A stretch of 64,000 nt of DNA from Azolla caroliniana (lineage: Eukaryota > Plantae > Polypodiophyta): contig JBHGNT010000005.1 in NCBI GenBank assembly GCA_043228905.1, positions 15,190,001 to 15,254,000 of the forward strand, in the 5' to 3' direction. Position numbers and translations under genes: made by a program. The notes beneath the pieces were generated by a model. The model was not told where the DNA came from. It ran no database searches and was given only the letters and a program-made list of their open reading frames with translations. Below, one piece after another: positions 4,501 to 60,511 of the stretch. Each line of letters begins with the position of its first letter. The first letter of the stretch is position 1.

Positions 4501-4938
4501 TAAACCTGCTCTACACCACTACTCCCTCGGCCCCAATGATCGGTTCTTGGTTCTCTCCTCTGACGGCCTGTACCAATACCTAAGCAATGAAGAAGTTGTT
4601 TCCCAAGTAGAATGGTTCATGGAGAACTACCCCGATGGTGATCCGGCACAGTATCTCATCGAGGAGCTTCTCTTTCGAGCCGCAAAGAAAGCAGGTATTT
4701 CTCTACTCCCTCTTACTCATCCTTAGGGGAAGGCATTTTGAAGCTTGGTTTCCACCTTGTTTTCTGGTTGAATTTGATTGTGTTCATCTTTTTTTTTTTG
4801 GGGGGGGGGGGGGGGGGGGAAGGGATGGACTTCCATGAACTATTAGATATTCCGCAAGGCGATCGTCGAAACTACCATGATGATGTGTGTGTCATGATTA
4901 TCTCTCTCGAAGGAAGAATTTGGCGATCATTTGGTTAG
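1520..4938 (+). CDS. Protein phosphatase 2C, POLTERGEIST/PLL (clade C) type; exons 1520-3817, 3980-4093, 4430-4694, 4823-4938
   Basis: N-terminal MGxxxS...GCF acylation motif, [25 protein letters not shown], repeated SGP(I/M/L)[83 protein letters not shown]. Three GT-AG introns join the exons in frame. Confidence 0.95.
4114..4307. mobile_element. Degenerate MITE-like (Mutator-type) foldback in intron 2
   Basis: GGTGTTTACCAAGATACCC (~4164-4182) is inverted to GGGCATTTTGGTAAACATA (~4254-4272); the outer CCCCTG/CAGGGG also pair. No clear TSD. Confidence 0.5.
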
Positions 4939-10559: not shown

Positions 10560-12572
10560 AAGCCCTAACATTGAAAAAGGTAAGGAATAGAAGAGTCCCT
10601 CATTCAAATTATTATCTGATATTGAATCTTCAACTGATTTAAAAAAAGTATTGGAAGAAAGAATTTTAGATAACAAAGTGGAGCTTTCCTTGAGGGAACT
10701 TTTAGGCATAGTGAAAAAGGGATGTCATGAAGCAATAATAGATGGAATTAAAGGAAAATTGCAGAGTATTGAAGTTGCTGAAAACCCAGGAAGTGAAGTG
10801 AAGAAAGCAACGGTGGAAGTTATCAAAGGTGAACCAAGCTCTTCCATTGTTGGTACACAAGCTATTGCGACGACAATTTTTGAAGAGAAGCCGAAAGAGC
10901 TAAAAAACTACTATGCTAAGAAACATTGGGCAAGAGCAAAAACTGAGACACTTGTGAAGATCCGATCGTGGCCTTAATCAACCACGGCTCCGAAATTAAT
11001 CTAATTTCTTATGAGAATAATATTTACAGGAAATGTCATGAGTAGATGAAACCCCATGAGGTTTAAGGGTGACTCGAACCCATGACCTCCTAATGAGAAG
11101 CACTCAGCTCTAGCCATTAGGTTATATATGTTGTACATAAAGATATTATAATTTACTTTATTATAATATTGATAATGTAACCCTATAAATATCCAAAGGG
11201 TGCCATGACCCTTCAATATCCCAAAGGCTATCATGACCCTACAACATCCCAACGGGTATCATGACCCTACAAACATCCAAGGGGCACATACTACTCCTAT
11301 ATAAATAGGACATATTGTATTGTTAGAACCATTTTGGTTCAACACCAGTATTTGGCAAATATTCTAGTTCTTGCTCTTGTATATTTTCCTATTATAATAA
11401 AATATAGCCATTGTTCTCTCTTTCTTTTCCTTTCTTGTTAAATCTTCTTTTGTCAAGCTAAGGCCTTGACAGCCAATGGAAACAAATCATGGGTGGAGGG
11501 TAAAATCGGCTAATTCAACGATTAAGGAACTTCATGGAGCTTGCCCAAACATCAAAGTTACCATTGGAGATATGCCAATGGAGCAACATTTCTTTATCCA
11601 AAAGACCTCTTCGTACCTAGTGATTCTTGGCCAACCATATATCACATCTTCTAGGATGGAGACGAAGGTGCTTGAAGATGGCTCGACATATGATAGGATT
11701 CGAAGTATTGATAGTAAAAAGAGTGTTCAAATTCTTACTATTAAGCGGGAGCGTGATAGAAATAAAGAAGAATTACGAATTAACTCGTGCGGACATGATA
11801 TGTCAACTTATGGGTCAGATTTTGAAAAGGGAAGATCAAAGCGCTAACTTCCTCAACAAAGATGACATCCATGAAGCTGAAGAAGGAGATGTCCGTTGGC
11901 GCATGCCAGAGGATGCACAGGTCTAGAGGGGGAGGACGTCGTGACGTTTTCGTGCCACAATGAGAAAATAACCTCTACCAAATTATATGAAGTGAATCAA
12001 ATCTTTGTAAATGGTTGTTTAGCTAAGTGATAGCTAATAACTTGATAAGAACACTCACCATAGGATGATAATAGCTAGTTGAATCTACGATAAAACATAA
12101 TATCGAGTAAAATATTTTAAAGCTAAATACCTATTATCAACACACTTGTTATTATCACTGTTAGTTATTAGAGCTATTACCCACTTATTACATTGAATAC
12201 TTATTCAAAGTACATTTTTATCAAGTAAATTTTCTATTGAAGCGATTACCGAATATTGTAGGTGCCTCATATGCATGGGTTACACTTGGCACTCATGCAC
12301 CCACCTTCCTCATGTATAAAAAGGGGAAGAGTAAACTTATCAAGAGGGGAATAACGATAGATGTCAAACACTATTGTAATAAGATAGGCAAGAAATACTA
12401 TTGCAATCATCTTGATATATCAATACAAGCTATTTTCATTTCTCTTCTTTCTTTGACAAGAAGCCCGATGCTTACTTCCTAGATTCGCATTTTCCTTTAC
12501 CGTTGCATGCATACGACGAGATCGGCATCACAACGTACCATACCTCGTTCGGTTTCAAGGTGTTTGTCTTCA
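10560..12572 (+). mobile_element. Gypsy family-B element with gag tail and protease joined directly to PPT and 3' LTR (~11937-12572)
   Basis: EERILDNKVELSLRELL, HWARA, LINHGSEINL, VILGQPYI match 27262-27837. The ORF ends at 11847, then AGAGGGGGAGGA and (C)GTCGTGA follow; TATAAAAAGGGG near 12315. Confidence 0.7.
11034..11471 (+). mobile_element. Solo LTR of chromovirus family D, inserted in the protease region
   Basis: TGTCATGAG...CTTGACA; closely matches the reverse complement of 60076-60511. Confidence 0.9.
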
Positions 12573-39120: not shown

Positions 39121-41507
39121 GCGGCTATACTGGTCTCTTATTCGGAAGATCCAGACACCTTGGAGGAACCCCACACGTGTACTATAAGTAGGAAGTTTTG
39201 GTTCTCCGACATTGGAGGTTGTAAGATAACTGGTGTCAGCAGCAGGGAAAAGAAACAGGTGGAGGAGCGTCTCAGGGAGTGCAGAGCCCTCAATCTTGAC
39301 GAGGAAATCAGCAACGCCGTGGAGGCAGTCTCTTTCAACGAAACCCTTCGAGAGGTGGGAAAGGTGCTCGAGGGTGGCCTCAGTGAAGACCGGGTGATTC
39401 TCGTTGGTTTCGTGGAAATGTATGAAGTCATTGCGGGCTTCGGGAAGAGGTCGGGTCAGATCGGATCGGATGGCCCGCGTAAACATGATATACAAGACTG
39501 TGGAACGGAAGGTGAGGCCGGTGGTGGCTCCCTTGCCGGAGGGAAGCGAGGAATGGAAATAGGGGGTTGCATCGGACCCAAGTTTGCAGAATCCGGCCGG
39601 CATAGGACACCGGTTCACCGACAAAACGCTACGGGACCTCAAGATTGGTGGGGGTGGCTTTCTACTGCCAGCGGAGGAGAACCGGTTTCGGAGGATGCTC
39701 GGGAGACATGGAAAGGCCTTCACATTCTTGCTGGAGGAGATCAGGTGTGTGGACCCGACGATCGTGGAACTAATGGTTATCTTCACGGTACCACATGTGT
39801 CGTGGAACCTCAAACCGATTCCAGTACCAAGAGCACACATCTCGAAATTGATGGAGCTACTGAAGCAGAAGGTAGAGATGGGCATCCTCGAGCCGTTGAG
39901 TGCCCCGTATTCGAATCGGTGGTTTACGGTGCAGAAGAAGAACAACACATTGCGCTTCATTCAGGACCTGTAGCCAGTCAACAAAGTGACCATCCGAAAC
40001 ACAGGAATCGAACCGACCATTGACAAGTTCGTGGAGGCCTTCGCTGGAAGGTCGATCTATTCAGTTGGTGATCTATACTCAGGATACGATCAATTCCAAC
40101 TAGCCGTAGAGAGCAGGGATATTACGACAATGCAGAATCCTCTCGGTTTAGTGCGGATGTGTACCTTGCCACAAGGAGGCACCAACTTGGTGGCGCACAT
40201 GGTGAACACAATGAACAATGGCTAAGGGATTGTATCCTGGACATCACTATGCCATTCTTGGACGACATCCCAATCAAGGGGTGTCCGGTGGAAGATAAGG
40301 ATGATTCGGTCGGGCCAGATGGATGCTGGAGGTTCGTGGCGGATCACATCGACGATTGCGAGAAGGTGCTACGAAGGCTCAAGGGTCCGCCGCTCACCTT
40401 CTCCGGGGAGAAGTCGGCTTTTGGGCAGTCCGAAATCTTGGTGGTTGGGCACTTGTGCCGTTCTTACGGCCGGAAACCGTCTTCAACAAAGGTAGAAGCC
40501 ATCTCCGTAATGAAAGAAGAATGCAAGTCGGTTACGGAGGTCCGGAGATTCCTGGGCGCATGTGCGTTCTACCACATCTAGATTCTGCACTACGCACACG
40601 TCGCAGAACTGCTCTACGGGTTGTTAAAGAAGGGGGGGCGTAAGTTCGAATGGAGTGAAGAGCACACGGAGTCGGTCCGAAGGTTGAAGGAGGCGCTAAC
40701 CGCGGCACCAGCACTCCGGAAAGCGGTTTACGAAGGGGGCTTCCTGATTTATGTGACCGTGGATACAAGTCCGACCGGGATTGGATGGGTGGTCAACTAG
40801 GAGGACAAAAACGGCACGAGGTTCCCCATCTGGTTCGAAGCAAAGGTACTAAGTGAGCGGCAACGAGGATACACCCAGGTTAAGCGCGTACTCTGGGGTA
40901 TCGTTTCGGCAGTCAAGTCCGACAAAGACTATCTAATCAGGACAGAGGTAATAATCGAGACGAACTACCTACCGATCCTCGGTATGGTTTTTGGATGCGC
41001 GACGCCGGACCTATCGATGCTCAGGTGGATCGCATACATTAAGTCCCTCAGTCCGGAGATACAACACATCTCTGGGAAGGACAATGCCATGGTCGACATG
41101 CTTTCCAGAGCACGGTTTGATTACGAAAACGGCATGGTTTCTAAAGACGAAGAAGTCAGCGTAGACTTCTTTGAGTCGGCACGCGTAGCGGTAAGAGAAT
41201 GTCATGATATGACAAGACTTGAACCCATGACCTTATGTTACATGGGTCGAGCTCTTGACCATTACACTATCTATTGTAATACGCAAGAAATTATTTTTAT
41301 TTAAGTTTACTATAGAAAATTAATGTATATTCCAAATTTCTCTGGAACATTCTAGAAGCTTCAGGATTACTCCTGAGAACACTATAAAAGGAGGCACAAG
41401 GCATTATTTCGAACCAAATCGGTTCAATGCCAGTCTTAAGCCTCCTAACCTTCCTTGTATATTCTTCTCACATAATATATCGTGGTCATCATCATTTTCT
41501 CTCCCTT

Positions 41508-41541
<34 letters not shown>

Positions 41542-44500
41542 TCTCTCAAGTGTTCTACACCCTCTATTCCTCTTACTACTAATATTCCTCTCTTAGTACT
41601 AATTTCTTCTCTGTCCCAGTACTATTTCTGATAGTTTGAACCGATTTGCCTCCTTCCATCTCCTCCTTTCCTCCTCTTCCTTTTATCTTCTTACATATCC
41701 ACTTTTTTCCGGTCTTCTTTCCGGTTTCCCTCATCTTCTTACCCCTTTTTTCCCTTCATACTAATCCTCTTATCCTCCCTAGTAAAATGGAAATTGTTAG
41801 CACTCACGAATACCAATCTATTTTCTCAGAGCTCTAGTGCTTAAAAGAGAAATTGGTAGCACTAGAACAAGAAAATCACTGTTTGTTGGGGGATCTTCAA
41901 CAAATAGCGCTGGAAAAACAACAACACGGGGAACTGACGTTACGTGTACAACAGCTTGAAGCGACTATTGTATAACTACAACAACAAGGATCAAGCACTC
42001 AAGGGATTCACAAAGAACCCAAGATCGGTCTTCCTGCAAAATTTGATGGGACCCGATCACAATTTAGAGGTTTTCTGAATCAAGTATGTTTAGTGATTCA
42101 AATGCATCCTTCTCGATATCCCACCGATGCATCACGAGTGGGACTGGTAGGCACTGTACTTAGTGGCTCAACATTGACATGGTTTGCTCTGTTGTTAGAA
42201 AAGGAATCTCCATTACTAAACAATGTTGAAGACTTTTAAAGTGAGTTTAAAGCCTGTTTTGGAGATACTGACAACATAAGGACAACAATAAACAAAATCC
42301 GACGATTACGCCAAGGTGATCGTCCAGCCTCCGCATACGCTGCAGATTTCTACTCGCCGCTGATATCTCTTGGGATAATCAAGCATTGATGGAGCAATTT
42401 CGTTATGGTTTACGCGACGATGTCAAGGATTTACTCTTGACCTTCCCTGAAGAACCAAAGTCATTAACAGAAGCAATCAGTCACGCGGTGAGATGCGACA
42501 ACCACCATTTCGAACGATGTTCGAAACGACAATTCCAGATGCCGAGGGCAAGATTAGAGCCCACCTATGCCTCATTGGTAGCAAAACTTTTTCCAAGGGA
42601 GTCATATAATGTGTCTCGAGTGAATACTCCAACTCCGATGGAGATTGACACTACACGTCGTCACAGACCATTATCGAAAGAAGAAAAATAGTGACGTCGA
42701 GCAAATCCACTATGTCTTTATTGCGGTGGACCAAGGACCAAGGCATATTGCAGTAAATTGTCCCCATAGGACAAGAAGACAGGTAAACCAAATAGTTGCT
42801 AGTTCTAATTGTACTAAACCCAAGTCTATTTCAGTAGGAATATCTGATAGTCCTAATAGTACTAATAGCCCAAATCTAGCGAACAAATTTGATGTCCTTA
42901 GTCATTTAGAAGAAGAGTTAAACGACTAAGTCTAGCCAAAATAGGAGGTGTTTGGTTAGACAACCCTAGATCTGTGAAGCCCATTAGAGGTTCCATTCCC
43001 TCTAAGTTAGCAATGAGTTCGTAGCCCAAGTAATAGTTAGTACTAAAAGTACCCCTCCAGTACATGTCTTAGCACTTCTAGATTCCGGAGCAAATTCTTG
43101 CTTATGGATAGGAATTTGGCCCAAGATCATCAGATATCTCTCATAAAACTCCCGTGTCCAGTCTCTATAGTAGTCATTGATGGTCTTCCCATTGCTTCCG
43201 GAAATATCATAGAAGAGTCAGAGCCCGTTAATATTGTCCTAGATAATCTAGCGTGTGTAGTATCATTTAATATAATTAGTATCCCAAAACATCCCATTGT
43301 TTTAGGATTACCATGGTTCAAATTACATAACCCAGAAATAGATTGGAGAACAAGAGAAATCCAATATCAACAAGCCTGAGGATCTACTTGTAAGATTGCA
43401 ACCATTTCGCTACATCAGTTGCGGGAAGAAGGACGCAAGGAAGAAATGTTTCTCTTCGCAATATCAGTAAAACCCTCCGACACCACTAAAGAGGAGTCAA
43501 CCGTTCAACTTCCAAAGAAGTATCATCATTATGCCGATGTGTTCAATAAAGTACAAGCCAATACGCTTCCTCACCATCGACTGTATGATTGCCCCATCGA
43601 TTTACAACCGGGAAAAGAGCCACCATGGGGATCGATTTACAATTAGTCACCAACCGAGCTAGAAGTCATTCGAGCCTATATAGAGGAGAATTTGGAAAAT
43701 GGTTTCATTCGGCATTTGAAATCTCCATTCGGCGCACTCATTTTCTTCATCAAGAAAAAGGATGGATCACTTTGTCACGTTGTAGATTATCGTGGCTTGA
43801 ATAAGGTCACCATCAAAAATATGTATGCACTTCCCCTTATCTCAAGTCTTTTAGAACGGATCAATGGTGCAAGGTTCTTCATGAAGATCGACTTACGGGG
43901 AGCATATAAGCTCGTACGGATCCGATTAGGAGATGAATGGAAGACCGTGTTTCGCACTAGATATGGGCACTTTGAGTATACGGTCATGTCGTTCGGCCTC
44001 ACTGATGCGCCAATAGTCTTCTAGCACATGGCAAATGATATATTCCGAGATCTCTTGGATGTTTGTTTGATCATCTATTTGGATGACCTACTGGTTTATT
44101 CAAAGACCCAAGAAGAGCGTGATTCTCATGTACTGTTAGTACTAAAACGACTTTGAAAACATGGTCTTTATGCAAAGCTGGAAAACTGTAGTTTCAGGTG
44201 CAACCATGTGGAATTTCTAGGCTATGTCATCTCCTCGGAAGGCATCTCCATGGATCCAGCTAAGGTCAAAATGGTGGTAGAGTGGCAAACTCTGCATTCG
44301 TTGCGAGATGTGCAATGCTTTTTAGGCTTTGCTAATTTCTACCGCAAGTTTATATAGGATTACTCAAAGCTTGTTCTGCCTCTCACACAACTTATTAAGA
44401 AGGGACAATTGTTCGTTTGGTCTGAAGAAGCGGACATGGCTTTTGAGAATCTTAAGAAGGAATTTACATCGGCTCTTATTCTAGTTCACGTTGATCCGGA

Positions 44501-47500
44501 AAAACCATTCATCATGGAAGCGGACACATCAGATTTCGCATTGGGTAGCATTCTGTCACAATAAGGTAATGATTAAAAGCTACATCCTATGGCTTTCCAC
44601 TCATGCAAATTTGATGCCGCCAAAATCAACAATGAATTTCATGATAAGGAGCTATTAGTAATAGTGGACTCTTTTACACAATGGAGACATTTTCTAGAGG
44701 GATCCTCTCATCAAGTCATCGTATTCAGTGATCACAAAAACCTTGCCTACTTTCAGAGTGCTCGTGTGTTAAATCGACGTCAAGCTCAGTGGACCCAATC
44801 CCTCACACATTTCGACTTCAAAATTACATATCGTCCGGGGAAGCACCAAGGGAAGGTAAATGCATTATCACGGAGTTCGTATCTAGCACCATGTCCCGGC
44901 GAGCTAGGTTTCGATAACCAAAAGCAAGTAATCTTGGGACCGGTACGACTGCAAGCAACACAGGTCTTCGGCATGCCCTTGGATTCCCACGTTATCGATA
45001 CCATACATGAGGACTTGAAAACAAATGCTTTCGCCCAAGCCATTTTAGCACAAATTGATCCCTCTCGAGCATCTTCTTCACAGTCGCAACAACCGAGTAC
45101 GAACTATCGACAATTCGAATGTCATGATGGATTACTATTCTTTAAGAAACTCTTGCATGTTCCTAATGGTTCTTACCACCTTCAAGTAGTCCAAAACTAT
45201 CATGACACATATATAGTTGGGCCATTTGGTAGTACTAAGACAGTAGATTTAGTGCAATGATCATTCTGGTGGCCCTGTATGCGACAATTTGTCTAGGATT
45301 TTGTTCAGACTTGTGATACATGTTGCAGAGCAAAAAATCCAAGGCATCATCCATATGGTTTATTAGAACCATTACCAATTCCAAGCAAGTCGTGGCAATC
45401 CATTGCTCTAGATTTCATCATAGATCTTCCAGTCTCTAAGGGATTCAATGCGATTTTAGCAGTAGTAGATCGATATACGAAGATGGCTCATTTCCTGCCA
45501 TGTACTAAGGAAATCTCCAGTGAAGAAACCGCTAAAATTGCCATGCGTGAAGTATGTCGGCATCATGGCCTTCCTGATAATATCATTAGTGACTATGGAG
45601 CCCAATTCGTCTTGAAATTCTGGAAGCACCTTTTTTAAATGCTCAAGGTCACTTGTAACCTCTCCTCCGGCTACCACCCGCAAACGGACGGCCAAGCAGA
45701 ACGAAAAAATCAAACATTGGAGTAGTATCTTCGGTGCTTTCTAAGCTATCATCAGGATGACTGGTCGAATATTCTCCACTTTGCCGAATTTGCCTATAAT
45801 AATTTTGTCCATTCATCGACTAAAGTTACGCCATTTTATGCTTATACAGGTTGTCACCCCCGATGGTGTGTATTTGAAACCCCAGAGTTACCCACAAATC
45901 CTTGCGTAGAGGATTGTTTGGAACGGTTACGCAAGATACAAGCTGATTTATCTACTCATCTACAACAAGCTCAACAAACACAAAAGGTTTACGCGGATCG
46001 TCATCGGCTCCCATCCAGTTTTAACATTGGAGATCAAGTATGGCTAATACGACGTCACATCAAGACTACTCGCCCATGCGAGAAGTTGGATTATCGACGA
46101 TTAGGTCCTTTCCGTATTATTAGAAAGATTAATGATGTCGCTTTTCTTCTTGATCTACCCCCGCAACTTCGCATACATCCGATGTTTCATAGTTCTCTCC
46201 TCGAACCCTATCAAGACAACACCATCCCAGGACGTATTCCACAACCTCCACCCCCGATCGAACTTGAAGATAGACTGAGTACGAGGTTGCCGCCATCCTC
46301 GATTCCTGTACACAACAAGCTCTACTATTTACTCAATTGGCTAGGATATAGTCCCAACGAGCGTACTTGGGAACCAATAGAGAATGTGATCAATGCTCGT
46401 GCTCTTCTTGAAGACTTCCATCGTCAATATCCAGATAAATCAGGTCCTCAAGCCAAACGACTCGTGTCATGATATGGCAGGACTCGAACCCATGACCTTA
46501 TGTTACATGAGTCGAGCTCTTGACCATTACACTATCTATTATAATACATAAAATATTATTTGTATTTAAGTTTTACTATAGAAAATTAATGTATATTCTA
46601 GATTTCTCTAGAACATTCTAGAAGCATCAGGATTACTCCTAAGAACACTATAAAAGGAGGCACAAGGCATTATTTTGAACCAAATCAGTTCAACGCCAGT
46701 CTTAAGCCTCCTAGCCTTCCTTGTATATTCTTCTCGCATAATATATCGTTTTCATCATTAATTTCTCTCCCTCGATCTCTCACTCACTCACTCTCTCTCC
46801 TTGTCTTGAGTGTTCTACACCCTCTATTCCTCTTAGTACTAATATTCCTCTCTTAGTACTAATTTCTTCTCTGTCTTAGTACTATTCCTGACAAAGAAGG
46901 GCACACTCCGGCGCTTAACGGATTTAACAAAGGCGAGTACGACGGGGAGTGGCTCCAGATCGGCAGATACTTGAAGATGATGACACTAAACACGACATGG
47001 ACGAAAGACGAGGCAAACCGGATCCGGAATAAGGCGTTCCGGTTGTTCCTGTAGGACGGGAACTTATGGAGGAATCCAATGAAGCGAAACGGTGTCCCGC
47101 TCTATGTATTTGAATGAGTAGAGGAATAGAAGGCATTGATAATGGCGTATCCCGAGAGCCCTCGGGCTGAACACCACGGAACGTGGGCTACATTCGAGAA
47201 GCTGAAGGAGAAATATTGGTGGCCGAGAATGTACCGGGATGTGCACCAATTCGTGACGACCTGTGAAAACTGCCAAGTGTATTTTGCGATCCGGCACCGA
47301 GACGAGTTGCACCCGACCTACCCACTAACTGTTGTCCATTCCTAGTGGATGGTGGACTTAGTGACAATGTCGATGGGGGTAGGGCAGATGCGGTACCTGG
47401 CGCTTGAATGAGAGGACCTGACATACCGAGCGGAGGGTCGTGCGCTTTCGGCCATCTGTCGGTTCCTGATCAAGGAGGTGATATGCTAGTACGGGTGCCT

Positions 47501-49098: not shown

Positions 49099-51250
49099 AC
49101 ACAACAACGCATTGAGCGAGGTGTTTCCCAATTTAGAACTGTCTGCACCTTGGATGGATCCATAGATATACCTTGTTGTGAAACCACATACCCTAGAAAC
49201 TCCACGTGGTTTTGATCAAATCTACATTTCTCGAGTTTGGCATGGATCCCATATTCTCGTAAGCGTTGGAGGACTTGGCAGACATGTGTGTCATGCTTTT
49301 TTGGACTTTTTGAGTAGATCAAGATGTCATCAAGATATACTATGGGAAATGAATCCAAGAAGTCGCGAAAAATATCATTCGCCATGTGTTGAAAAACTGC
49401 GAGCTCATTTGTGAGACCAAAAGGCATAACCGTGTACACTCGAAATGTCTGTATCGAGTACGGAATGTTATCTTCCATTCATCTCTTGGACGTATCCGAA
49501 CAAGGTTATATGCGCCTCGAAGGTCTAGCTTTGTGAAAACTTTACCTCTGGACTAAGACACTCTAGTAAACTCAATATCAAGGGTAGAGCATATCGATTT
49601 CGAACTGTGATTTTGTTTAAACCTCGATAATCCACGACCAATCGTAAAGACCCATCTTTCTTCTTGACAAAGATTATGGGTGCACCAGTAGGGTTTTTAG
49701 AATGTCGAATGAATCCATTTGCTAAGTGCTCATGTATATACTCTCGAAGGGCCTTGAGTTCAGAAGGTGATAGAATATATATTGGGCCCCATGGTGGTTC
49801 TTTCCTAGGTTGTAGATCGATCGGACAATCATAAGGAAGATGGTCTGGAAGAGAACTAGCTTTAGTTTTGTTGAAGATGTCTTCAAAATCCAAGTACTTC
49901 GTAGGAAGGTGAGTACATGCCCCTTGTGAACTAGAGGATGGATTTGTCGTTACTGCAAAGACAAACATTTCGTTTCTCCACCCGTCTTCTCGTAAGTTTT
50001 GTAGAGATATGAGTGAGATTTGGTGAGGTTTTGAATCTTGGTTGGTAATAACAAAGCTGTTGGATTTAGGTTTCTACTGGAAATCATTGATTGCTCGATT
50101 TCTCCAGTCAATTTCAGGCTTATGAAGCTCAAACCAAGGCAAACCAAGGATAACCGGATGCTCAGGGCTACTAATTATATTGAAGGAAATCACACAAGCA
50201 AAGCTACCAAGGACTACTCGAATTGGCTTGGATTCTTCGACTATATCCCTAGATGCAATAGGGTGACCATCAATGACTACAACGGATGTAGGATAGAGGA
50301 GGTTTCTCAATAGGATGTTTTGGGATAAAGCAAATTCTTTGTCCATAAAACAAGAGTTGGCTCCTGAATCTAAGAGAGAAGATGCAAGAACTCGATGACA
50401 CCTAGAAGTGCTAACCTCAACTTGTGCTGAAAAAACTTTGCTAACATGATTCAATAAAATGGAACCACTACTTGGGGCTGACTTTACGTATTCTGGTTTG
50501 TCCAACCAAATGTCTCCAAGCTGACTCAAGACCTCAAAACTATTGGATTGGCCTAGACATGTGGGGCTACTAGGGATAGATAATCTAATTGGGGAATTGG
50601 AATTAAGTTTCTCACTAGTACTTACTTGATTTACTTGTCATTTTGGCCTATGTGGGCAGGTGATTGCTATGTGTCAAGGACCACCACAATACAAACATCG
50701 ACGGTTTGCTCGGCGTTGTTGCTTCTCAACTTCAGACAAAGGCCCTCGAACAACATGTTACATCGATCTCCATCGGACTTGAACCAATTGATGGAATCAT
50801 GTGTGAATTTTGGGTAGTGCTCGTAGGTGTCGAGGCTACTACTAAAGCATATGTTTTAGTCGTTCTTGGTCGTGACATTAGTTGACGTTTTGAACGTTGC
50901 TCGAATAAACGATTGTCACATCGCACCACATGATTTATTACTTCTGTAAGAGATCTTGGATCTTCGTGGAAAGTTAATAACAAATATTTTGTACATCATT
51001 TCGTAGTCCATGGCGAAACTGATACATTAATGTTTCTTCATCCCATGGAATATCACAAGCTAGGATGCGGAAATTTGCGGCGTACACGGAGGCGGGACGA
51101 TCCCCTTGACACAGTCTTCGAATTTTATTGATCGCCGTTCTAACACTATCAATGTCTCCAAAGTTTGCTTGAAATTCTTTAATAAAACCTTCAAAGTCTT
51201 GAAGGAGAGGAGATTTCTTTTCTAGCAGTGGTGCAAACCATGCTAATGTC

Positions 51251-52704
51251 GTTCCTGTTAAGAGGGTTCCTACTAGTTCAACTCGAGTTGTATCGGTTGG
51301 ATATCTATTAGAATACATATGATTACTAGACGCACCTGATTTAGAAATCCTCAAAACTATGATCGATTACCCTCGAAATTTCCGGGCAAACAAATCTTTG
51401 GCTCTTTGGGAGAGCTTTGTTGCATCAAAGGTTGTTGATGAAGAGACCGCAATGTTGTTTCAATTTGCAATACACGTGTTGATAACTCATCATATTGTTG
51501 CACCTTTTCTATGCTCACTTGTTGTAAATCTCCAAGCAATCGTTGATTCTTTTGCTTTAGAGCCAGAAACGTTTTTGTGAGATGCTTGAGCTCGGAGACG
51601 ACTTGAACATACTCTTGCTTGCTAACGGACTCCATGGCGACGATAACGCTTGATAGGATTCTCAAGAAAAAGTGTTAATCCTTAGGGCCGAACAACAGCC
51701 TAACACAGGGTGTCCACTTAAGACACTTCACCAAAGGGTGTTACAGCAAGATGACTTATGACACAACACCTAATTAGACCTTAATTGGTTACTTAGCAAT
51801 ACGTCATTACACGCGTAAGATATAACAATGAGTACAGAACGGTAATCAATACTAAAAGGTTAAGGCCATAAGTTCTATTAATTATCCGCTGTCAATTACA
51901 TTGTAACCGGGCCTTTATATAGGTCTCCAGTGCAAAGTACAAAACGGTGCCAACCGGCACCTATTCGGAATCGGTTCGTTCCTGTTAAGAGGGTTCCTAC
52001 TAGTTCAACTTGAGTTGTATCGGTTGGATATCTATTAGAATACATATGATTACTAGACGCACCTGATTTAGAAATCCTCAAAACTATGATCGATTACCCT
52101 CGAAATTTCCGGGCAAACATATCTTTGGCTCTTTGGGAGAGCTTTGTTGCATCAAAGGTTGTTGATGAAGAGACCGCAATGTTGTTTCAATTTGCAATAC
52201 ACGTGTTGATAACTCATCATATTGTTGCGCCTTTTCTATGCTTACTTGTTGTAAATCTCCAAGCAATCGTTGATTCTTTTGCTTTAGAGCCAGAAACTTT
52301 TTTGTGAGATGCTTGAGCTCGGAGACGACTCGAACATACTCTTGCTTGCTAACGGACTCCATGGCGACGATAACGCTTGATAGGATTCTCAAGAAAAAGT
52401 GTTAATCCTTAGGGCCGAACAACAACCTAACACAGGGTGTCCACTTAAGACACTTCACCAAAGGGTGTTACAGCAAGATGACTTATGACACAATGCTTAA
52501 TTAGACCTTAATTGGTTACTTAGCAATACGTCATTACACGCGTAAGATATAACAATGAGTACAGAACGGTAATCAATACTAAAAGGTTAAGGCCATAAGT
52601 TCTATTAATTATCCGCTGTCAATTACATTGTAACCGGGCCTTTATATAGGTCTCCGGTGCGAAGTACAAAACGGTGCCAACCGGCACCTATTCGGAATCG
52701 GTTC
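51251..52704. repeat. 727-bp tandem duplication spanning the D gag / C LTR junction
   Basis: 51251-51977 is nearly identical to 51978-52704; TCG microhomology at the junction. Confidence 0.92.
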
Positions 52705-55700
52705 GGATCCGGATCGGCATATTGATTCCGGTTCGTCTATCCACATTAACAAAATAATTACAACAATTCCTGAATAAACTATTCCTTTCACACTCTAGTC
52801 TGGACATCCTTAAGCCTTCTTGCCGGCCGGGTAACACATGGTAGGCTCGTGGGACAGTACCTTGTATGTCGAACCCATTATCCGGCCCTGCTACTCTTCG
52901 TCCAAAATGTCCAGAATGCTTTGCTCCAAAATTTCCAATGGCTCGTCGGGAATCTGTTGTTGTTGTTGTGGCTGTTGTTCCGTTTGTGGCTACTGCAGTG
53001 GCTGCTCTGTTTGTGCCTTCTCCGTTTGTCGCTCTAGCACCGGCGTTTCCTTCGTTGTTTCCTCTGTCGGAGTTGTCTCTAGCTGACTAACCCCGGCCTG
53101 GTCCCCGTCTAGTCCTTGTACCAGCAACGGTTCCTCATCACTAAGGTTGACCGTTGCTGCCTTCCTTGCTTTTTCTTCCCGAAGCCGGGACCGCTCATAG
53201 CTCTCAAACTGGATTTGAGCCTCCAGCCGATCGTCGTCCAATTGAGCTATGAGTTGCCGGACCTGCACCAATTGTTCATCCAGCTCATCGCTTATGGCGG
53301 TGAAGTCCTCCGATGTCAGCGTATAACAGTCGTCACCTTCCTTCCGCCAGTTTTCCATGTCCGCCCTAAGCAATTGGAGTTCCGCCGTATTCTGCGCCCA
53401 TTTCGTCCACCATTGCACAGAGCTCTCGTCAATCAAGAGTTTGGTCTTGGTGAGCCATGCCTGGAGGATGCACTAGATCCGTTCGGTTCCATTCGTGATT
53501 TATTCTCCGCGGCTTGTCGCTCCTCTTTCAATTGCTTGATGATTCTGACCGTGTCCTCCTCCTGCTCCCTATAATGCGACAATTGACTTTGATAGGTTGT
53601 TTGCAACCTCTGTAACACCATTGTCACCCTTTCCTTTTCTTCATGGTTCTGCTTGTGGAGCACCATCCGGTCCCTCGCCGCTTCCTCCAATAGCTTTGTA
53701 TTTTCAGCTCGTTCGTCGGCGAGTGCCGTTGTGACCCTATCAATTTCCTGCCGGAACTCGGCCATCCTTTCTTGCTGTTGCTTATACTCTATGTCTAAGC
53801 TCTTAAAGTTCCGGTGCAGGTGGTCGAAGTGCTCTGTCTTCTGCTTTAGCCTCTGGTTGATTTGCCGGCGAGCGCGGTCTTCCCGGTCCTTTTGTTGACG
53901 GAGTTCTTCTTTCAGCCTCTCATTGGTCGCTTATCAGCTCTATGGGGCATCCGTACAGGCACCAAATGTATTCGTAAAAGAATTTTGCCGTCGACGCCGC
54001 GGTGTTGTCTCGTAGGGCTTTGGCTTCCACCCATTTAGTGTAGTAGTCCGTCGCGACGATCACATACCAGTTGCCAGTTCTCATTGCCGGTGGTTTAAAT
54101 GGTCCGACAAAATCCAGTCCCCATTTCTGAAATGGTTCTAGCGGTAGAACTGGCTAGTGCGGCATCCTAGTTTGTTCCGTTGGCTGGCCCATTCGCTGGC
54201 ATAGATCACACTCTTTCATGTACCGGACTGCGTCTTTCAATGTAGTCGGCCACCATAGGCCACTTTGCCATATCTTCCTTGCCGTAGTATCCCCAGCATA
54301 ATGGCCTCCGGCGACTCCGCAGTGTACTTCCCTTAGTATTACCTCTTTCTCGTCGTTGCGCACCGCTCGTCGCCATATACCATCCACACCTTTGTGGTAT
54401 AGCGTGTCCCGTAATAAACAGAAGTGCCGGCTTTGTACCACCATGCGTTTCCTCTCGTCCCGGTTCATCTTCTCCGGAGGCAATCCGGTGCTCAGAAATT
54501 GGTGCATATTTGTTAGTCACTTATCTTCTGGTGTCACCGTTTCATCTGTTGCCGTTTCCGTGGTGACTCGAAATAGCTCAACATCCGGAAACTCGTCCGG
54601 TACTCTGTCGCCGGTTTCGCCGGAATCTGACCGGCTTAAATAATCTGCTACCGCATGTTGTATGCCGGGTCGGTGGAATATCTCGAATTCGAATTCCTGT
54701 AATAGCAAAGTCCACCGGGCCAACTTACCGGTAAGTAACGCTTTGGACACTAGGTAGAGGAGTGCAGAATGATCTACATGGAAGGAAAACTTTCTTCCTA
54801 ATAAATAATGCCTGAATTTTGTTACGTTGTAGATCATGCCTAAAGCTTCCCTTTCCGTGGTGTTATAATTTCATTCGGCTTGGGATAACTTCCGGCTTGC
54901 GTAATATACGGGCCGGTACCATCTTGGCTCCATAAGTTGCATCAGTGCACTCCCGATTGCAATGTCGGACGCATCCACGAACACATGAAATTCCTTCGCC
55001 CAATCCGGAGGTTGCACTACCGGCGCTCGCTACAATAGAACTTTGAGTGCCCGGTACACCTTGTCTTCAGTGTCGGTCCACTGGAACGGTGTTCGGTGTA
55101 CCGTAGCATGCAGTGGTGTAGCTAGGTCCGCCAAATACCGGAGCATTCGGCTATGCCAACAGATTTGGCCTAAGAAACGGCTCAATGCCTTTGCCATTGT
55201 TGGTGTCGGTGCCTCCAGGATTGCTTTTACTTTGTCCGGATCCACGGCGATGCCTTCCTTGATCACAATGTGCCCCAGTAGCGTTCCGCTGGACACGCCG
55301 AATACACACTTCGCCGGATTCAGGCTTAGCCGGTAGGCCCTACACTTTTCTAGACACAATCGGAGGTGCTGTTGAGGAACACCTGCATGAATGCTGATAT
55401 GAATTCTCCGAATATTTCCATGATGATCCTCTAGAACATTGTCGGCGCCATTTTTAGTCCGAACATCATCACTACGGCAACAAACACTCCCCATTCAGTG
55501 ACAAAAGCCGTTTTCTCCTAGTCATCGGGGTGCATCCGGATCTGGTTGTATCCGCGGAATCCATCTAAAAAACTATATACCTCATGGCCGGCGACTACGT
55601 CCAAAACTCCATCCGTAAATGGAAGTGGAAATGCATCAGTTACCGTCGCCGCATTAAGCTTCCGGTAGTCGACACATACTCTAATTTTGCCATTTTTCTT

Positions 55701-56254
55701 TGGTACGACTACTATTGGGCTCAACCATGTAGATTTCTTTACGGGACGGATAAAGCCAACCCTCAGCAACTTGTCGATTTCCTCCTTGACTTTGGCGGCG
55801 TATTTTGGATTCATCTGGTACCATCGTTGTGCTACCGGTTTGGTGTCTTTGCTCAAATGTATCTGATGCTGATATAGCTGAGAATCGAACCCTCTCATAT
55901 CCTCGTAGGACCAGGCAAACATGTCCCGAAACTCTTTGAGAAGTGTAATCATCGCCGTTCTGTTCTCCGTAGTCATTTCCTTGGCTATCTGCACCGGTCT
56001 CGCCTCTTCCGTAGTTCCTAGATTTACCTCCTCTAGTTGGGATGCTTTAACCCGTTGTGATACGACCATTTCTCTTTCCAGCGCTTCTTGTGCTTGCCGT
56101 AGCTCCCGGATCACTTTTTTATTTGGTTCTTCGTCCGCTCCGTCCGGTGGGACTATGTATGGTGATACGGCTTCAGCTACGTCGATTTCGAACAGAGGTG
56201 CTATCTTCGGATTATCTTGCAAGTATTGATCCACCTCTTTGTCTACTAATCCGT

Positions 56255-56625
56255 CCAGCATATTGACACATTCAGCATATAGGGGTGTCAATTCCTTCCC
56301 GGTACTCATCCGTGGTTGTGTCGGTACCCGTACTTTTGCTTTTCCCCGCCGGAAGGTGATTATATTCTTCCTCCAGTTTTGTTTAATGTGCGCCGTTTTT
56401 AGCCACGACCACCCCAACAATATGCTGGCACTCCTTGTGCCAGCATATTGACACATTCAGCATATAGGGGTGTCAATTCCTTCCCGGTACTCATCCGTGG
56501 TTGTGTCGGTACCCGTACTTTTGCTTTTCCCCGCCGGAAGGTGATTATATTCTTCCTCCAGTTTTGTTTAATGTGCGCCGTTTTTAGCCACGACCACCCC
56601 AACAATAGCGGGTAAGCTCCTTGTG
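56255..56625. repeat. ~185-bp tandem duplication in the PR-RT linker of element C
   Basis: CCAGCATATTGACACATTC occurs at 56255 and 56440. Confidence 0.9.
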
Positions 56626-59114
56626 CCTGTAATTATAGCACTACTGCTGAGATGTGAAATGTGTGGCCACCGATTGTTACTTCCAAATCTCGTATCAAGC
56701 CGGTCGGTCGCACTGAGCTTGTATCCGCCATCCGTAGCCAGAACGGGCATGGTTCCCACTCTTGGATTCCCAAAGTTGTGCATGTTCGGAGGCTAATCAC
56801 ATTGACGCCAGATCCTCCATCTATTACTGTTCCGGGTAACTCCTTTCCCTTCACGATGGCTGTGATCGCTGAACTGTTTGTGTCGACCACCGTCGGTCCC
56901 TCCTCCGGATTTGAGAAGAATGTTGGTGCCGATGGTGTTTCTCCTGCCGTCATGCCTATCTTGAGTCCTTCTGTGAATCTGGGCACTAGTTACAAGAGCC
57001 GTCCTGATGGCAACGTGATTTGGCACTCCTGCAATGCCTGTCATGTCGCTTTTTCGGTCTGACTGCCGTCGGCGAGCTCTTCGGTGTTCTCCTTTTGTTG
57101 CGCAAGTTCTGCTACGTTTCGCTCATTTGCCTTTTTCACCCATTCCGTTGCCTGCTTTCGGATGGCCTCTTGTGTCTCCCATTCCGTCGCCTTGCCCTTC
57201 GACCTTGTGGTAACCTGCTGCAGGTCTGTGACTTCGGCAACTACCATGTTTACTGCCGGTCACTTGTCATAACTCTTTGCCGGACATTGATTACTATAAT
57301 CTCCTTCTTGCCGGCAATAATAGCAATATGCTTTCCGAGTATTGCTGGATTCGGCATTGTTTCTTGTACCCCGTGGAGGACCTGTGGTAACCACGGGGCT
57401 TTGGTCCGGTTAGCTGCCTGAGGCACCTTTTTCCGGTTCACGTGGGTGGCTCCCTTTTTTGAAATGCCGTTTTTTATTAAAGTTCTTTTTGTTGCGGTAC
57501 CCTTGACGGGGTTGGTCGTCATATCTCCCGTAATCTTCCCGTCGTTGGTGATACCCGGGGGAGTGATCCTGGTTGTAATGCTTGTACCGTCCATTGTAAT
57601 CTCAGTACCTGTCATATCTCTCGTACCAGTCATAGTTGTCTCGCCAATCGCCGTACCGGACATACTGTGCCGGTCGATATCTCTCCTCTCGCCACTAGCG
57701 TTCGTCTTCTTCGTCTCGGTTGCTACGTGGCTCGATTTTCCGGACTGGTGGTGCTTGCTGATTTAATAAGTTATATTCGCACCGGTCCATCGTATAGCTC
57801 ATAGATTGGCAAAGTAAGCAGTGCATTCGCATGGTGCACTCCAGTGCTGAGTGTCCGGAATTCAAGCAGGTCGTGCATTGGATTGCTTGCCGGAACCGGA
57901 GATCCTCATCGGTTGGTAACGCTCGTTGGAGGGCTCCCATTGTTAGCCAAGAGCTCGTTTTCACCATTTCTCTAACCCGGTCGATGACCTGGTCAACGGT
58001 GCCTGTGCGAAAGTCGATGACCGTGCATACCGTTCGTAGAGGTTCCCGGAGCGCGGCTAAGAATATAGCCCATGTTTCTTCCTCCGGAGGTGTTCGGGTA
58101 AGCTGACTGTGCATCCGTTGAAACCAGATGACAAACTGCGGAATGCTCTCCCCAGGGTCTTGCCGGATGGTATAAAATAGGCCCACCATTTCTCGTTGGT
58201 CCACCTCCTTCTGAAAGAAGTGCAAGAATTTATCTTTCAGGTCCGCAAAGGTGGTGATGGTGCTGGGGTCCTGCGTCCGGTGCCATCTGGCGGCCGGTCC
58301 TTCCAATGTCACGCCGAATTCAGCTATCTTAGATCGTTCCTCTTCGGCCGCGGTTAACCGTTGTGACACATGGTTCGCCTCCCATGTTTGTTGAAACACG
58401 TGAACATGAGCCTCCGTGTCCGGGTCATCCTTATACTTGGAGTACTGGAATGGCATGTCGTCGTCCGGTGTCGGTACGCGGGTTGGCGGTGTCGGTGGTC
58501 TTTCCTGTTGTTCCGTCGGCGTCGGAGGTCTTTGTCGGTCTTCCTTTGCTGTTGTCGTCTCGACTTCCGGTGTCGGAGGTCTTTCTTTGTCTTCTTCCGC
58601 CTCCGAAGGTTGCTCCACGTCTAGTGGCGGAGGTTCTTGGTCTGACAATTCTAGTTCCGGTGTCGGTAATGTATCCGACTCCTCGTCCTCCGGTCCTCCT
58701 GGGGTGTCGTTACTGCTGTGATAGTTCGTGTGCGTGTTGTAGCCCCCTTCCGAATCCGATTCCAACACCAAAAATGCTTCAGATTCGCCGTCTCTTCCGG
58801 CCAAGGCCTCGAGAAGGGATTCCGCTTCCCGGAGGCTGCTTAAGTTGCTTCCTTCGTCCAGGTAAGCATTTTGTTGCAAATAGAGCGACTCCTCCGCCAC
58901 TTTCCGGATCACTTTGGAAAATGATCGATCCGATCGGATTTCTTCCGCCGCTTGCTGGAAAGCCTCTAGCCGCCTTCGCCGTTCAGAAAGTCTTCGTGCT
59001 CTCTCCGTAACCGGGTCGTCTGTTGGCCTAGTCATCCATTCCCGCCGTTGTTCACTGCGATTGTGTAGGAATCGTGGTCGCCAAAAACTGTGTTAATCCT
59101 TAGGGCCAAACAAC

Positions 59115-59540
59115 TGTCATGATATGGCAAGACTCGAACCCATGACCTTATGCTACATGGGTCGAGCTCTTACCATTAGACTATGAATTGTATTTTGTAG
59201 GATATTATTTTCATTTATGCTTTATCATCGAAAATTGATGTATATTCCATATCTCTCTGGAACATTCTAGAAGTTTCAGGATTATTCCTAAAAACACTAT
59301 AAAAGGAGGCACAAGGCATTGTTTTGAACCAAATTGGTTCAACACCAGTTTTAAGCCTCTTAGCCGATTTGTACTTATCTTTCATATAATATAAGAGCTG
59401 TTGTCATCATCCTATTTCTCTCTCTCTCCTCTTCTCACTTCCTCTCTCTCGGGAATCTTACGCAGTCTCGTCCTCTTAGTACTAATAGTACTACTCTTCT
59501 TAGTACTAATTCCATCTCTGCTTTAGTACTATTCCTGACA
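59115..59540 (+). mobile_element. Solo LTR of family E inside the 5' LTR of element C
   Basis: TGTCATGATATGG...TTCCTGACA, homologous to 46465-46893; perfect TSD ACAAC. Confidence 0.93.
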
Positions 59541-59970
59541 ACAACAGCCTAACACAAGGTGTCCACTTAAGACACTTCACCAAAGGGTGTAACGGCAAGA
59601 TGACTTACGACACAACGCTTAATTAGACCTTAATTGGTTACTTAGCAATACGTCATTACACGCGTAAGATATAATAATGAGTACAGAACGGTAATCAATA
59701 CTAAAAGGTTAAGGCCATAAGTTCTATTAATTATCCGCTGTCAATTACATTGTAACCGGGCCTTTATATAGGTCTCCGGTGCAAAGTACAAAACGGTGCC
59801 AACCGGCACCTATTCGGAATCGGTCCGGATCCGGATCGGCATACCGATTCCGGTCCGTCCGTCCATATTAATAAAATAATTACAATAATTCCCGAATAAA
59901 CTATTCCTTTCACACTCTGGTCTGGACATCCTTAAGCCTTCTTGCCGGCCGGGTAACAAAAAGAAGGAAA

Positions 59971-59983
59971 GAAGAGAGAGAGA

Positions 59984-60028
<45 letters not shown>
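59971..60028. repeat. (GA)n microsatellite in the element D leader
   Basis: Directly visible GA run with one GT interruption. Confidence 0.9.
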
Positions 60029-60030
<2 letters not shown>

Positions 60031-60511
60031 AGCGAGAAAGAGAGAGAAAAAGAGAGAAGATATTTTGGTTCAAACTGTCAAGGCCTTAGCTTGACAAAAG
60101 AAGATTGAACAAGAGAGGAAAAGAAAGAGAGAATAATGACTATATTTTATTATAATAGGAAAGTATACAAGAGCAAGAACTAGAATATTTGCCAAAGACT
60201 GGTGTTGAACCAGAATGATTCTAACAATACAATATGTCTTATTTATATAGGAGTAGTATGTGCCCGTTGGATGTTTGTAGGGTCATGATACCCTTTGGGA
60301 TGTTGTAGGGTCATGATACCCTTTGGGATATTGAAGGGTCATGGCACCCTTTGGGATATTGAAGAGTCACGACACCCTTTGGATATTTATAGGGTTACAT
60401 TATCAGTATTATAATATCTTTATGTAGAATATATATAACCTAATGGCTAGAGTTGAGTGTTTCTCCTTAGGAAGTCACCCTAAACCTTATGGGTTTCATC
60501 TACTCATGACA

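Follow-up and report, generated by a model that had tools for sequence, protein, structure and literature searches.

tRNA-derived A and B boxes facing outward in the long terminal repeats of chromoviruses from a fern genome

Introduction

The Pol III promoters known from long terminal repeats (LTRs) belong to short non-autonomous elements and transcribe the element that carries them. The locus described here raises a different question. Within the window, by which we mean the whole 64-kb stretch of fern DNA analysed, the LTRs of a retrotransposon contain an A box and a B box that face away from the element; such a cassette cannot transcribe its element and must serve another job. Does it derive from a tRNA, has selection maintained it, and what might that other job be?

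Results

A self-priming chromovirus with paired boxes in its LTRs

The element carrying the cassette, which we call F1, is about 5.7 kb long and has the Ty3/gypsy domain order, ending in a C-terminal chromodomain (Table 1). Its 5-bp target sites, GAGAA and AAGAA, are alike at 4 of 5 positions, and its 3' LTR copy lacks the preceding purine tract found in relatives. The primer site is complementary to the R region of its own LTR, in a sequence lying about 30 nt past the TATA box; this complement measures 13 nt in the window, 12 nt in the related loci L008 and L010, and 9 nt in L015. Among plant chromoviruses, such self-priming is typical of Tcn1 (Neumann et al., PMC6317226; statements about cited papers draw here and below on part of the text of each). 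Close relatives have an intact group I aromatic cage (Y..W..Y) with a full-length Pfam Chromo match, the first cage residue being unreadable in the broken chromodomain of the window. Given self-priming and the intact cage in close relatives, F1 is likely a Tcn1-type chromovirus; the trees described below compare unnamed integrase-chromodomain relatives. "E-family", the name used for these LTRs in a sequence-only reading that preceded this analysis, was that reader's own label, and we found no published use of it.

Table 1. Positions of the LTRs, cassettes and element features in the 64-kb window
Feature	Position	Strand	Remarks
F2 LTR	11034-11471	plus	U3 unlike that of F1
F2 cassette	11070-11124	minus	Profile 16.7 bits
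F1 5' LTR	41200-41633	plus	90.3% identity to 3' LTR
F1 5' LTR cassette	41215-41269	minus	B box 41215-41225 GGTTCAAGTCT; A box 41259-41269; profile 13.3 bits
Predicted 5' end of element RNA CAAATCGGTTCAA, self-primer	41415-41427	plus	13-nt complement of primer site
Self-priming site TTGAACCGATTTG behind 5' LTR	41636-41648	plus	Complements the LTR, not a tRNA end
Broken gag-pol of F1	41976-46472	plus	Starts with gag-like DUF4939
F1 RT	43647-44021	plus	
F1 RNase H	44577-45257	plus	
F1 integrase	45297-45635	plus	
F1 Tf2-type SH3 and chromodomain	45726-46469	plus	
F1 3' LTR	46465-46893	plus	TGTCA...TGACA ends
tRNA-derived cassette, F1 3' LTR	46470-46541	minus	tRNA positions 1-72 by spacing; profile positions 7-68
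B box GGTTCGAGTCC, F1 3' LTR cassette	46480-46490	minus	33 nt after A box
AGGTC, F1 3' LTR cassette	46494-46498	minus	tRNA variable-loop positions 44-48
A box TAGTGTAATGG, F1 3' LTR cassette	46524-46534	minus	T8-G19
AT-rich stretch upstream of A box	46549-46584	minus	89% AT; putative landing zone for TFIIIB
Heat-shock-element-like GAAnnTTCnnGAA, U3 of F1 3' LTR	46611-46623	plus	
TATA box, LTR Pol II promoter	46649-46655	plus	114 nt from T8
F1 solo LTR	59115-59540	plus	Perfect target-site duplication ACAAC
F1 solo LTR cassette	59130-59183	minus	B box 59130-59140; A box 59173-59183 TAGTCTAATGG; profile 16.6 bits
F2 element 5' LTR	60076-60511	minus	Self-priming site then adjoins

On the minus strand of the F1 3' LTR, the letters of both boxes and the gap between them are as the sequence-only reading had given them, and the further pairs it placed in the 5' LTR and the solo LTR were both located, again on the minus strand. 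A strict A+B pair pattern, searched on both strands of the 64 kb, matches solely at these three F1 cassettes. The A-box pattern by itself is not enriched in the window (90 matches against 82.5 expected); the B-box pattern is (6 against 0.79), and three of its six matches are the F1 copies. LTRs with the cassette share one layout, running from the LTR end through a variable spacer of 16 to 49 nt to the B box, the A box, an AT-rich zone, an enhancer and the TATA box. The zone upstream of the A box is 69-97% AT in 21 of 25 copies, namely those long enough to measure, and the TATA of the Pol II promoter sits 113-183 nt from T8, a range that omits F2, whose TATA match was wrong. The outward, antisense orientation first claimed for the cassette holds in 25 of 25 aligned copies.

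The U3 also contains a motif like a heat-shock element; its pattern has 6 matches in the window against 1.2 expected, and the three F1 LTRs account for five of the six. Reads of the F1 LTR are abundant, with 2,400-4,504 contigs per run in all four DNA runs, which come from three studies. Depth of read contigs peaks over the B-box half of the cassette, although depth cannot rank the parts. A PP2C gene in the window clusters with fern proteins. The CpG observed/expected ratio is 0.76-1.07, so the elements are hardly CpG-depleted, and an argument from CpG retention was abandoned because depletion is almost nil.

The window holds a second LTR family with the cassette, F2, which the earlier reading overlooked. 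Pol identity between F2 and F1 is 64%. The two cassettes match in LTR position and strand and are identical at 18 of 18 nt over AGGTC and the B box, with different inter-box DNA. The 5' LTR of the F2 element has kept its A box (60436-60446), and a 14-nt deletion took its B box. One probable RNA run (X21) gave no F2 LTR contigs, a single run that we do not count as evidence.

Distribution among related elements

A search with an integrase-chromodomain alignment yielded 83 related loci, 24 of them from one assembly set (names beginning ERZ). Three of the 24 end before enough LTR is reached, and all 21 others carry the cassette. Of the 59 remaining loci, 41 show a purine tract together with 110 nt or more of LTR and could be judged; none of these 41 LTRs, which amount to about a dozen families with many near-copies, has the cassette. 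As all 41 of these related LTRs lack it, the cassette is not a general Tcn1 feature. In nine of the 21 carrier loci, pol is an open frame of 868-1,235 aa that continues as far as the LTR, and two of the nine have gag too; the cassette therefore belongs to autonomous elements. Viral contigs, searched by pattern and by protein, gave no match.

According to our trees (a quick one for 84 rows and a careful one for 26), carriers form two clades, A and B. The careful tree shows two changes and rejects a single clade (p-AU 0.0065), which means either two gains or one gain and a loss, the latter in the sister group of clade B that has no cassette. Position 17 in the A box is extra in clade B and missing in clade A, a hint, not proof, of two tRNA donors for the two clades.

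tRNA origin and loss of the tRNA fold

For an independent comparison, we used a profile of 31 distinct short tRNA genes, chosen from 63 real ones found. The F1 3' LTR cassette matches it at 16.5 bits over the positions given in Table 1, against a maximum of 9.0 bits in 1,420 dinucleotide shuffles. Four of the five window LTRs score 13.3-16.7 bits, and 14 of the 21 carrier loci score at least 5 bits, a level reached by 0.35% of the 1,420 shuffles; the match is on the minus strand every time. The tRNA origin proposed from the letters is thus borne out: the cassette consists of tRNA-derived A and B boxes inside the LTR.

It had also been said that this is not a functional tRNA, and here ARAGORN and Rfam agree. 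ARAGORN called 0 tRNA genes in the 64-kb window and in the 60 of the 83 related loci that were scanned, and four Rfam scans, including one of 141 nt around the F1 cassette, gave no tRNA match at E<=10. A 5S rRNA match was likewise absent from the Rfam scans. The cloverleaf is lost. Pairing is 37% in the acceptor stem, 39% in the anticodon stem and 63% in the T stem, against 39%, 38% and 66% in shuffled columns and 97-99% in real tRNAs. The degenerate acceptor stem noted earlier is therefore real, but it understated the loss, the anticodon and T stems being gone too. The D stem pairs at 70% against 60% in shuffled columns (p 0.016, for the best of 7 registers and with relatedness not controlled).

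Conservation of the boxes and their spacing

Comparisons between families used 14 representatives from the 25 copies, after near-duplicates had been removed (L001, L003, L004, L008, L012, L013, L065, L067, L077 and two window copies); cassette alignments were anchored on motifs. Between clades A and B, identity is 0.27 at fourfold-degenerate sites, which are saturated, 0.28 between the boxes and 0.27 upstream of the A box, versus 0.59 in the A box, 0.88 in AGGTC and 0.67 in the B box. AGGTC is the most conserved segment between families, with a mean pairwise identity of 0.87 over the 14. T8, G18, G53, T54, T55 and A58 are invariant in the 14 families and position 57 is always G or A, counts that the motif-anchored columns inflate. 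When the A box was searched for freely, without assuming a spacing, G18 and T54 came out 36 or 37 nt apart in 21 of 25 copies, where 3.4% would be expected; 26 of 29 real tRNAs have the same spacing.

The idea that the boxes outlast neighbouring U3 thus holds between families and fails within close subfamilies, where divergence is 0.15 in the boxes and 0.14 between them (F1-like copies) or 0.31 and 0.16 (L072-like copies). GTTCRA has survived in 8 of the 9 contigs with deep coverage, which are the same nine carriers that have long pol frames, versus 5 of the 12 single copies with low coverage (Fisher p 0.04). Box variants include A58C, common to L067 and L077, C61T in L006, and A14G, common in two of the four DNA runs. 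Because of these variants, some lineages have probably moved with weakened boxes, and the box requirement is probably not absolute. Among the variants listed for the sequencing runs (40 of 78 and 40 of 70), none falls in the B box or AGGTC.

Other features of a Pol III gene are not kept. A terminator of four or more T behind the B box is not conserved: the first T4 lies at 0-531 nt, or none occurs within 600 nt. Four loci have it 1 nt behind the B box and one has it at 0 nt. Such an unconserved stop signal speaks against a functional RNA product. The plant-type CAA start motif directly upstream of T8 occurs in some families only and is not conserved over the 14. A long alternative hairpin, unlike that of a tRNA, forms in the F1 branch and in two clade B families, L053 and L062; in 8 of the 14 families it does not.

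Judged by the conservation seen in these alignments, maintenance of the cassette by selection is well supported, and we think it probable that a Pol III-type promoter is what has been selected.

A candidate barrier role and its rivals

The A box, the B box and their spacing are the features that TFIIIC reads. The cassette likely works at the level of DNA, as a type 2 Pol III promoter, and the complex bound to it would shield the Pol II promoter of the LTR from neighbouring heterochromatin; the barrier role, taken by itself, is a tentative proposal to which we give slightly less than an even chance. TFIIIC would occupy the A and B boxes and then place TFIIIB on the AT-rich zone. Pol III would start outward into the DNA flanking the LTR and end at the first T run, so that its RNA would be a by-product, and the assembled complex would behave as a tDNA barrier, holding the LTR Pol II promoter open. 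The RNA would have no fixed end, fold or sequence; we infer that the assembled complex itself would be the selected thing, and selection would act on transposing progenitors rather than on every inserted copy.

A barrier would fit these elements because group I chromodomains reportedly target H3K9-methylated chromatin, where an LTR needs protection. The MAGGY chromodomain binds H3K9me2/3 (PMC3350952). The fission-yeast tDNA barrier requires both TFIIIC and Pol III, and its orientation does not matter (PMC2040200); a review ascribes tDNA barriers to animals and yeasts, the part of it cited here giving no plant example (PMC9540200). Several observations count against a barrier. D stem pairing is above chance, and a purely DNA-level role needs no D stem; the F2 5' LTR has no B box, and 41 related LTRs have no cassette. 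The long hairpin of the F1 branch and L053/L062 and the variability of the boxes in close subfamilies also count against it, as do the A58C, C61T and A14G variants.

Alternatively, the Pol III product itself may matter, as an antisense RNA that starts in the 3' LTR, passes the purine tract, enters the chromodomain coding sequence and regulates the element, with copy control, siRNA or interference with plus-strand priming as variants. Both boxes and the AT-rich upstream zone are kept, pointing to real initiation, and any transcript from the 3' LTR would run antisense to both the purine tract and the integrase end. However, we consider this unlikely: beyond the unconserved terminator, the transcribed parts between and behind the boxes match between families no better than random sequence, and half of the LTRs would fire into unrelated flanks.

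The cassette could instead act in plus-strand genomic RNA, annealing the T arm and D arm of a host tRNA at the start of U3. A tRNA-Lys3-like sequence is said to have been described in HIV-1 U3-R by Piekna-Przybylska in 2010. The conserved parts of the cassette are the D arm, the variable loop and the T arm, AGGTC exceeds the B box in conservation, and in Ty3 the 3' part of the bipartite primer site, located in U3, binds tRNA T and D arms (PMC5371799). Against this, the elements self-prime, so no primer tRNA is tied to new DNA. The substitutions also fit poorly, wobble-tolerated changes being found in 0 of 84 cells (T8, G18, G19, G53, T54 and T55 in 14 families) while C56 and C61 together show untolerated C-to-T changes in 5 of their 28 cells. 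Moreover, the sense-oriented Helenus elements, discussed below, retain AGGTC though unable to pair with a tRNA. Annealing is thus quite unlikely to be what maintains the cassette.

Two further rivals are very unlikely, to about the same degree. According to the first, a hairpin directly behind the purine tract is selected, as RNA or as a DNA cruciform, and the tRNA likeness was its raw material. F1 copies do fold (minus strand, z -3.1 to -5.7; plus strand, z -3.3), and the solo LTR cassette doubles as a near-perfect 21-bp inverted repeat (fold z -5.7). The two halves of a cassette also pair better with each other (-11.8 kcal/mol) than with halves taken from other families (-9.5 kcal/mol), at a permutation p of 0.01 that does not control for relatedness. 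Yet 8 of 14 families retain the boxes while having a weak hairpin (-4.7 to -8.9 kcal/mol), the register of the hairpin differs between F1 and L053/L062, and the F2 fold is no better than shuffles (z -1.2).

According to the second, TFIIIC bound at the U3 end of the cDNA guides the pre-integration complex to the nucleus, to Pol III clusters or to the nuclear periphery. The B box lies just 16-49 nt from the LTR end, and Ty3 integrase is reported to work with Pol III factors. A lone B box would do for this purpose, yet the A box and the fixed spacing are kept, and with 0 tRNA genes in the window or the 60 scanned loci nothing points to integration next to Pol III genes.

It is highly improbable that a tRNA or SINE once inserted in U3 and that the cassette is merely its neutral remnant. 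Single copies decay without sparing the boxes and related LTRs lack the cassette, but between clades the boxes and spacing persist although fourfold sites are at 27% identity and the inter-box DNA is random, so that the idea is largely refuted; a recent LTR swap between clades would have preserved the inter-box DNA as well.

A second self-primer site in the B-box core was also considered and rejected, as 11 of the 14 families have G at position 57, a mismatch to the primer, and the A box and AGGTC would be left unexplained.

If the barrier reading is true, the cassette would give a retrotransposon a cis-acting route of escape from silencing and would offer a simple, mutable test case for plant chromatin insulation by TFIIIC sites. 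Given the abundance of the family, the host genome would hold many fold-less Pol III promoters overlooked by tRNA finders. More doubtful is the full scenario, in which two chromovirus clades of one fern lineage each captured a tRNA promoter, their A boxes being of different tRNA types, as an outward TFIIIC insulator; elements that seek heterochromatin would then carry their own barrier, and their many solo LTRs would spread portable Pol III-type boundaries through the host genome.

Comparison with known systems

The sequence-only reading had offered Cassandra as a parallel; Helenus, a tRNA-derived TRIMp3 (Kojima 2024, PMC10886601), is nearer, as Cassandra is 5S-derived and a 5S match is absent here. 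Like F1, Helenus keeps tRNA-derived A and B boxes in its LTR while the tRNA fold decays, has AGGTC before the B box, and shows 5-bp target sites and solo LTRs; Helenus-1_SMo of Selaginella has the same 36-nt spacing as the cassette (PMC10886601). Since AGGTC is kept in sense-oriented Helenus and the 36-nt spacing in one from Selaginella, these traits go with tRNA-derived promoters. Helenus elements are, however, non-autonomous, 311-1,263 bp long and tRNA-primed (PMC10886601), whereas the elements here are about 5.7 kb long with gag-pol and self-primed by the R region of their LTR. In the Helenus consensus sequences compared, the cassette is in the sense orientation near the LTR 3' end and can drive the element's own RNA, whereas here it is antisense at the 5' end of U3 and the Pol II TATA promoter is kept. 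Because three defining features fail, namely non-autonomy, a sense cassette and tRNA priming, F1 and F2 are not Helenus elements, though the same kind of promoter is likely at work. The Helenus paper states that "not a few LTRs" in Repbase resemble part of a tRNA, and it analysed short elements only (PMC10886601); its restriction to short elements means that unanalysed Repbase entries may include a case of an antisense cassette.

Cassandra does share a Pol III promoter within a plant LTR (PMC10886601; PMC10946416). Cassandra and the Ajax TRIMs have 5S-derived type 1 promoters and are non-autonomous, whereas the promoter here is tRNA-derived and its elements autonomous. Among chromoviruses, the Tcn1 clade, related to Tf1/Sushi, has the same RT-RH-IN-chromodomain order and self-priming, with LTRs of about 430 bp, a length of 5.7 kb and, in relatives, a group I chromodomain (PMC6317226, PMC2864245). 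Tcn1 is reported from mosses, lycophytes and basidiomycetes, the cited parts of both papers leaving any tRNA-like LTR sequence unmentioned, whereas the host here is a fern.

Outside LTRs, the cassette resembles the cen1 tDNA-Ala barrier of fission yeast in having a complete type 2 promoter, and the orientation-independent action of that barrier would suit an outward-facing cassette (PMC2040200). The yeast barrier is a host tRNA gene whose function was tested, whereas ours is a fold-less mimic on a mobile element with a putative barrier function. The bipartite primer site of Ty3 offers another likeness, its U3 RNA being complementary to tRNA T and D arms (PMC5371799); Ty3 and HIV-1 are tRNA-primed, whereas the present elements are self-primed and their substitutions depart from a wobble-pairing pattern.

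The literature searched, which left most subscription papers outside and took in a small part of the Helenus supplement and the fern genome paper PMC6786969 without its supplements, yielded no description of an antisense tRNA-derived promoter in autonomous chromovirus LTRs. The finding extends to a whole group of elements, beyond the first cassette, with a function that we infer. Overall, tRNA-derived LTR promoters were already known from Helenus, and what appears to be new here is an antisense one in autonomous elements.

Organization of the F1 LTRs and U3 motifs

In family F1, the cassette, an antisense tRNA-derived A and B box unit at the outer end of U3, doubles as a long inverted repeat in which the T-arm side pairs with the D-arm side (59119-59190 in the solo LTR, z -5.7); this repeat is weak in the majority of non-F1 families. 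The L046 and L067 contigs contain additional cassettes of the clade B type, one of the two carrier groups, within LTR pieces that inserted at other places in them, and the A box of the L046 copy is the classic TAGCTCAACTGG.

By pattern count, the three F1 LTRs all contain heat-shock-element-like matches, holding five of the six in the window, where 1.2 are expected. The LTR's Pol II promoter may therefore respond to heat. By eye, TTCTAGAA repeats at loci L002 and L017 resemble these arrays.

The self-primer motif GGTTCAAYRCC, located at the RNA start on the plus strand (41421-41431 and the 11336-11346 region), looks like a sense-oriented minimal B box, a likeness that is probably coincidental. 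The F1 pol frame extends past the 3' LTR boundary and ends within that LTR (46440-46472), an arrangement shared with several relatives; the purine tract is missing from this copy.

Features of the window and of related loci
Feature	Position	Strand or basis
Heat-shock-element-like array, F1 U3	41345-41362	pattern match
Heat-shock-element-like array, F1 U3	46611-46623	pattern match
Heat-shock-element-like array, F1 U3	59260-59277	pattern match
F2 chromovirus, split by large non-chromovirus Gypsy element	49147-60511	minus
LTRs of that Gypsy element	52418-52836 and 59540-59958	
Tandem duplication, 727 bp	51249-52705	
PP2C phosphatase open frame, 794 codons	1490-3871	
Clade B-type cassette	L046 143-195	
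Clade B-type cassette	L067 290-318	

Genomic setting and bacterial records

The F1 solo LTR sits within an LTR of the large Gypsy element, which itself lies inside the chromovirus of the second family, F2; F1 and F2 share 64% DNA identity in pol. The window's PP2C phosphatase clusters with fern proteins (SH-aLRT 99), and the placement of the host, likely a fern, was based on it.

Chromovirus integrases are also present in bacterial genome records, namely, L080, L081, and L083 (all from genome G001) and L082. On reading, G001 holds eukaryote-like tRNAs, and eukaryotic contamination of these assemblies is likely.
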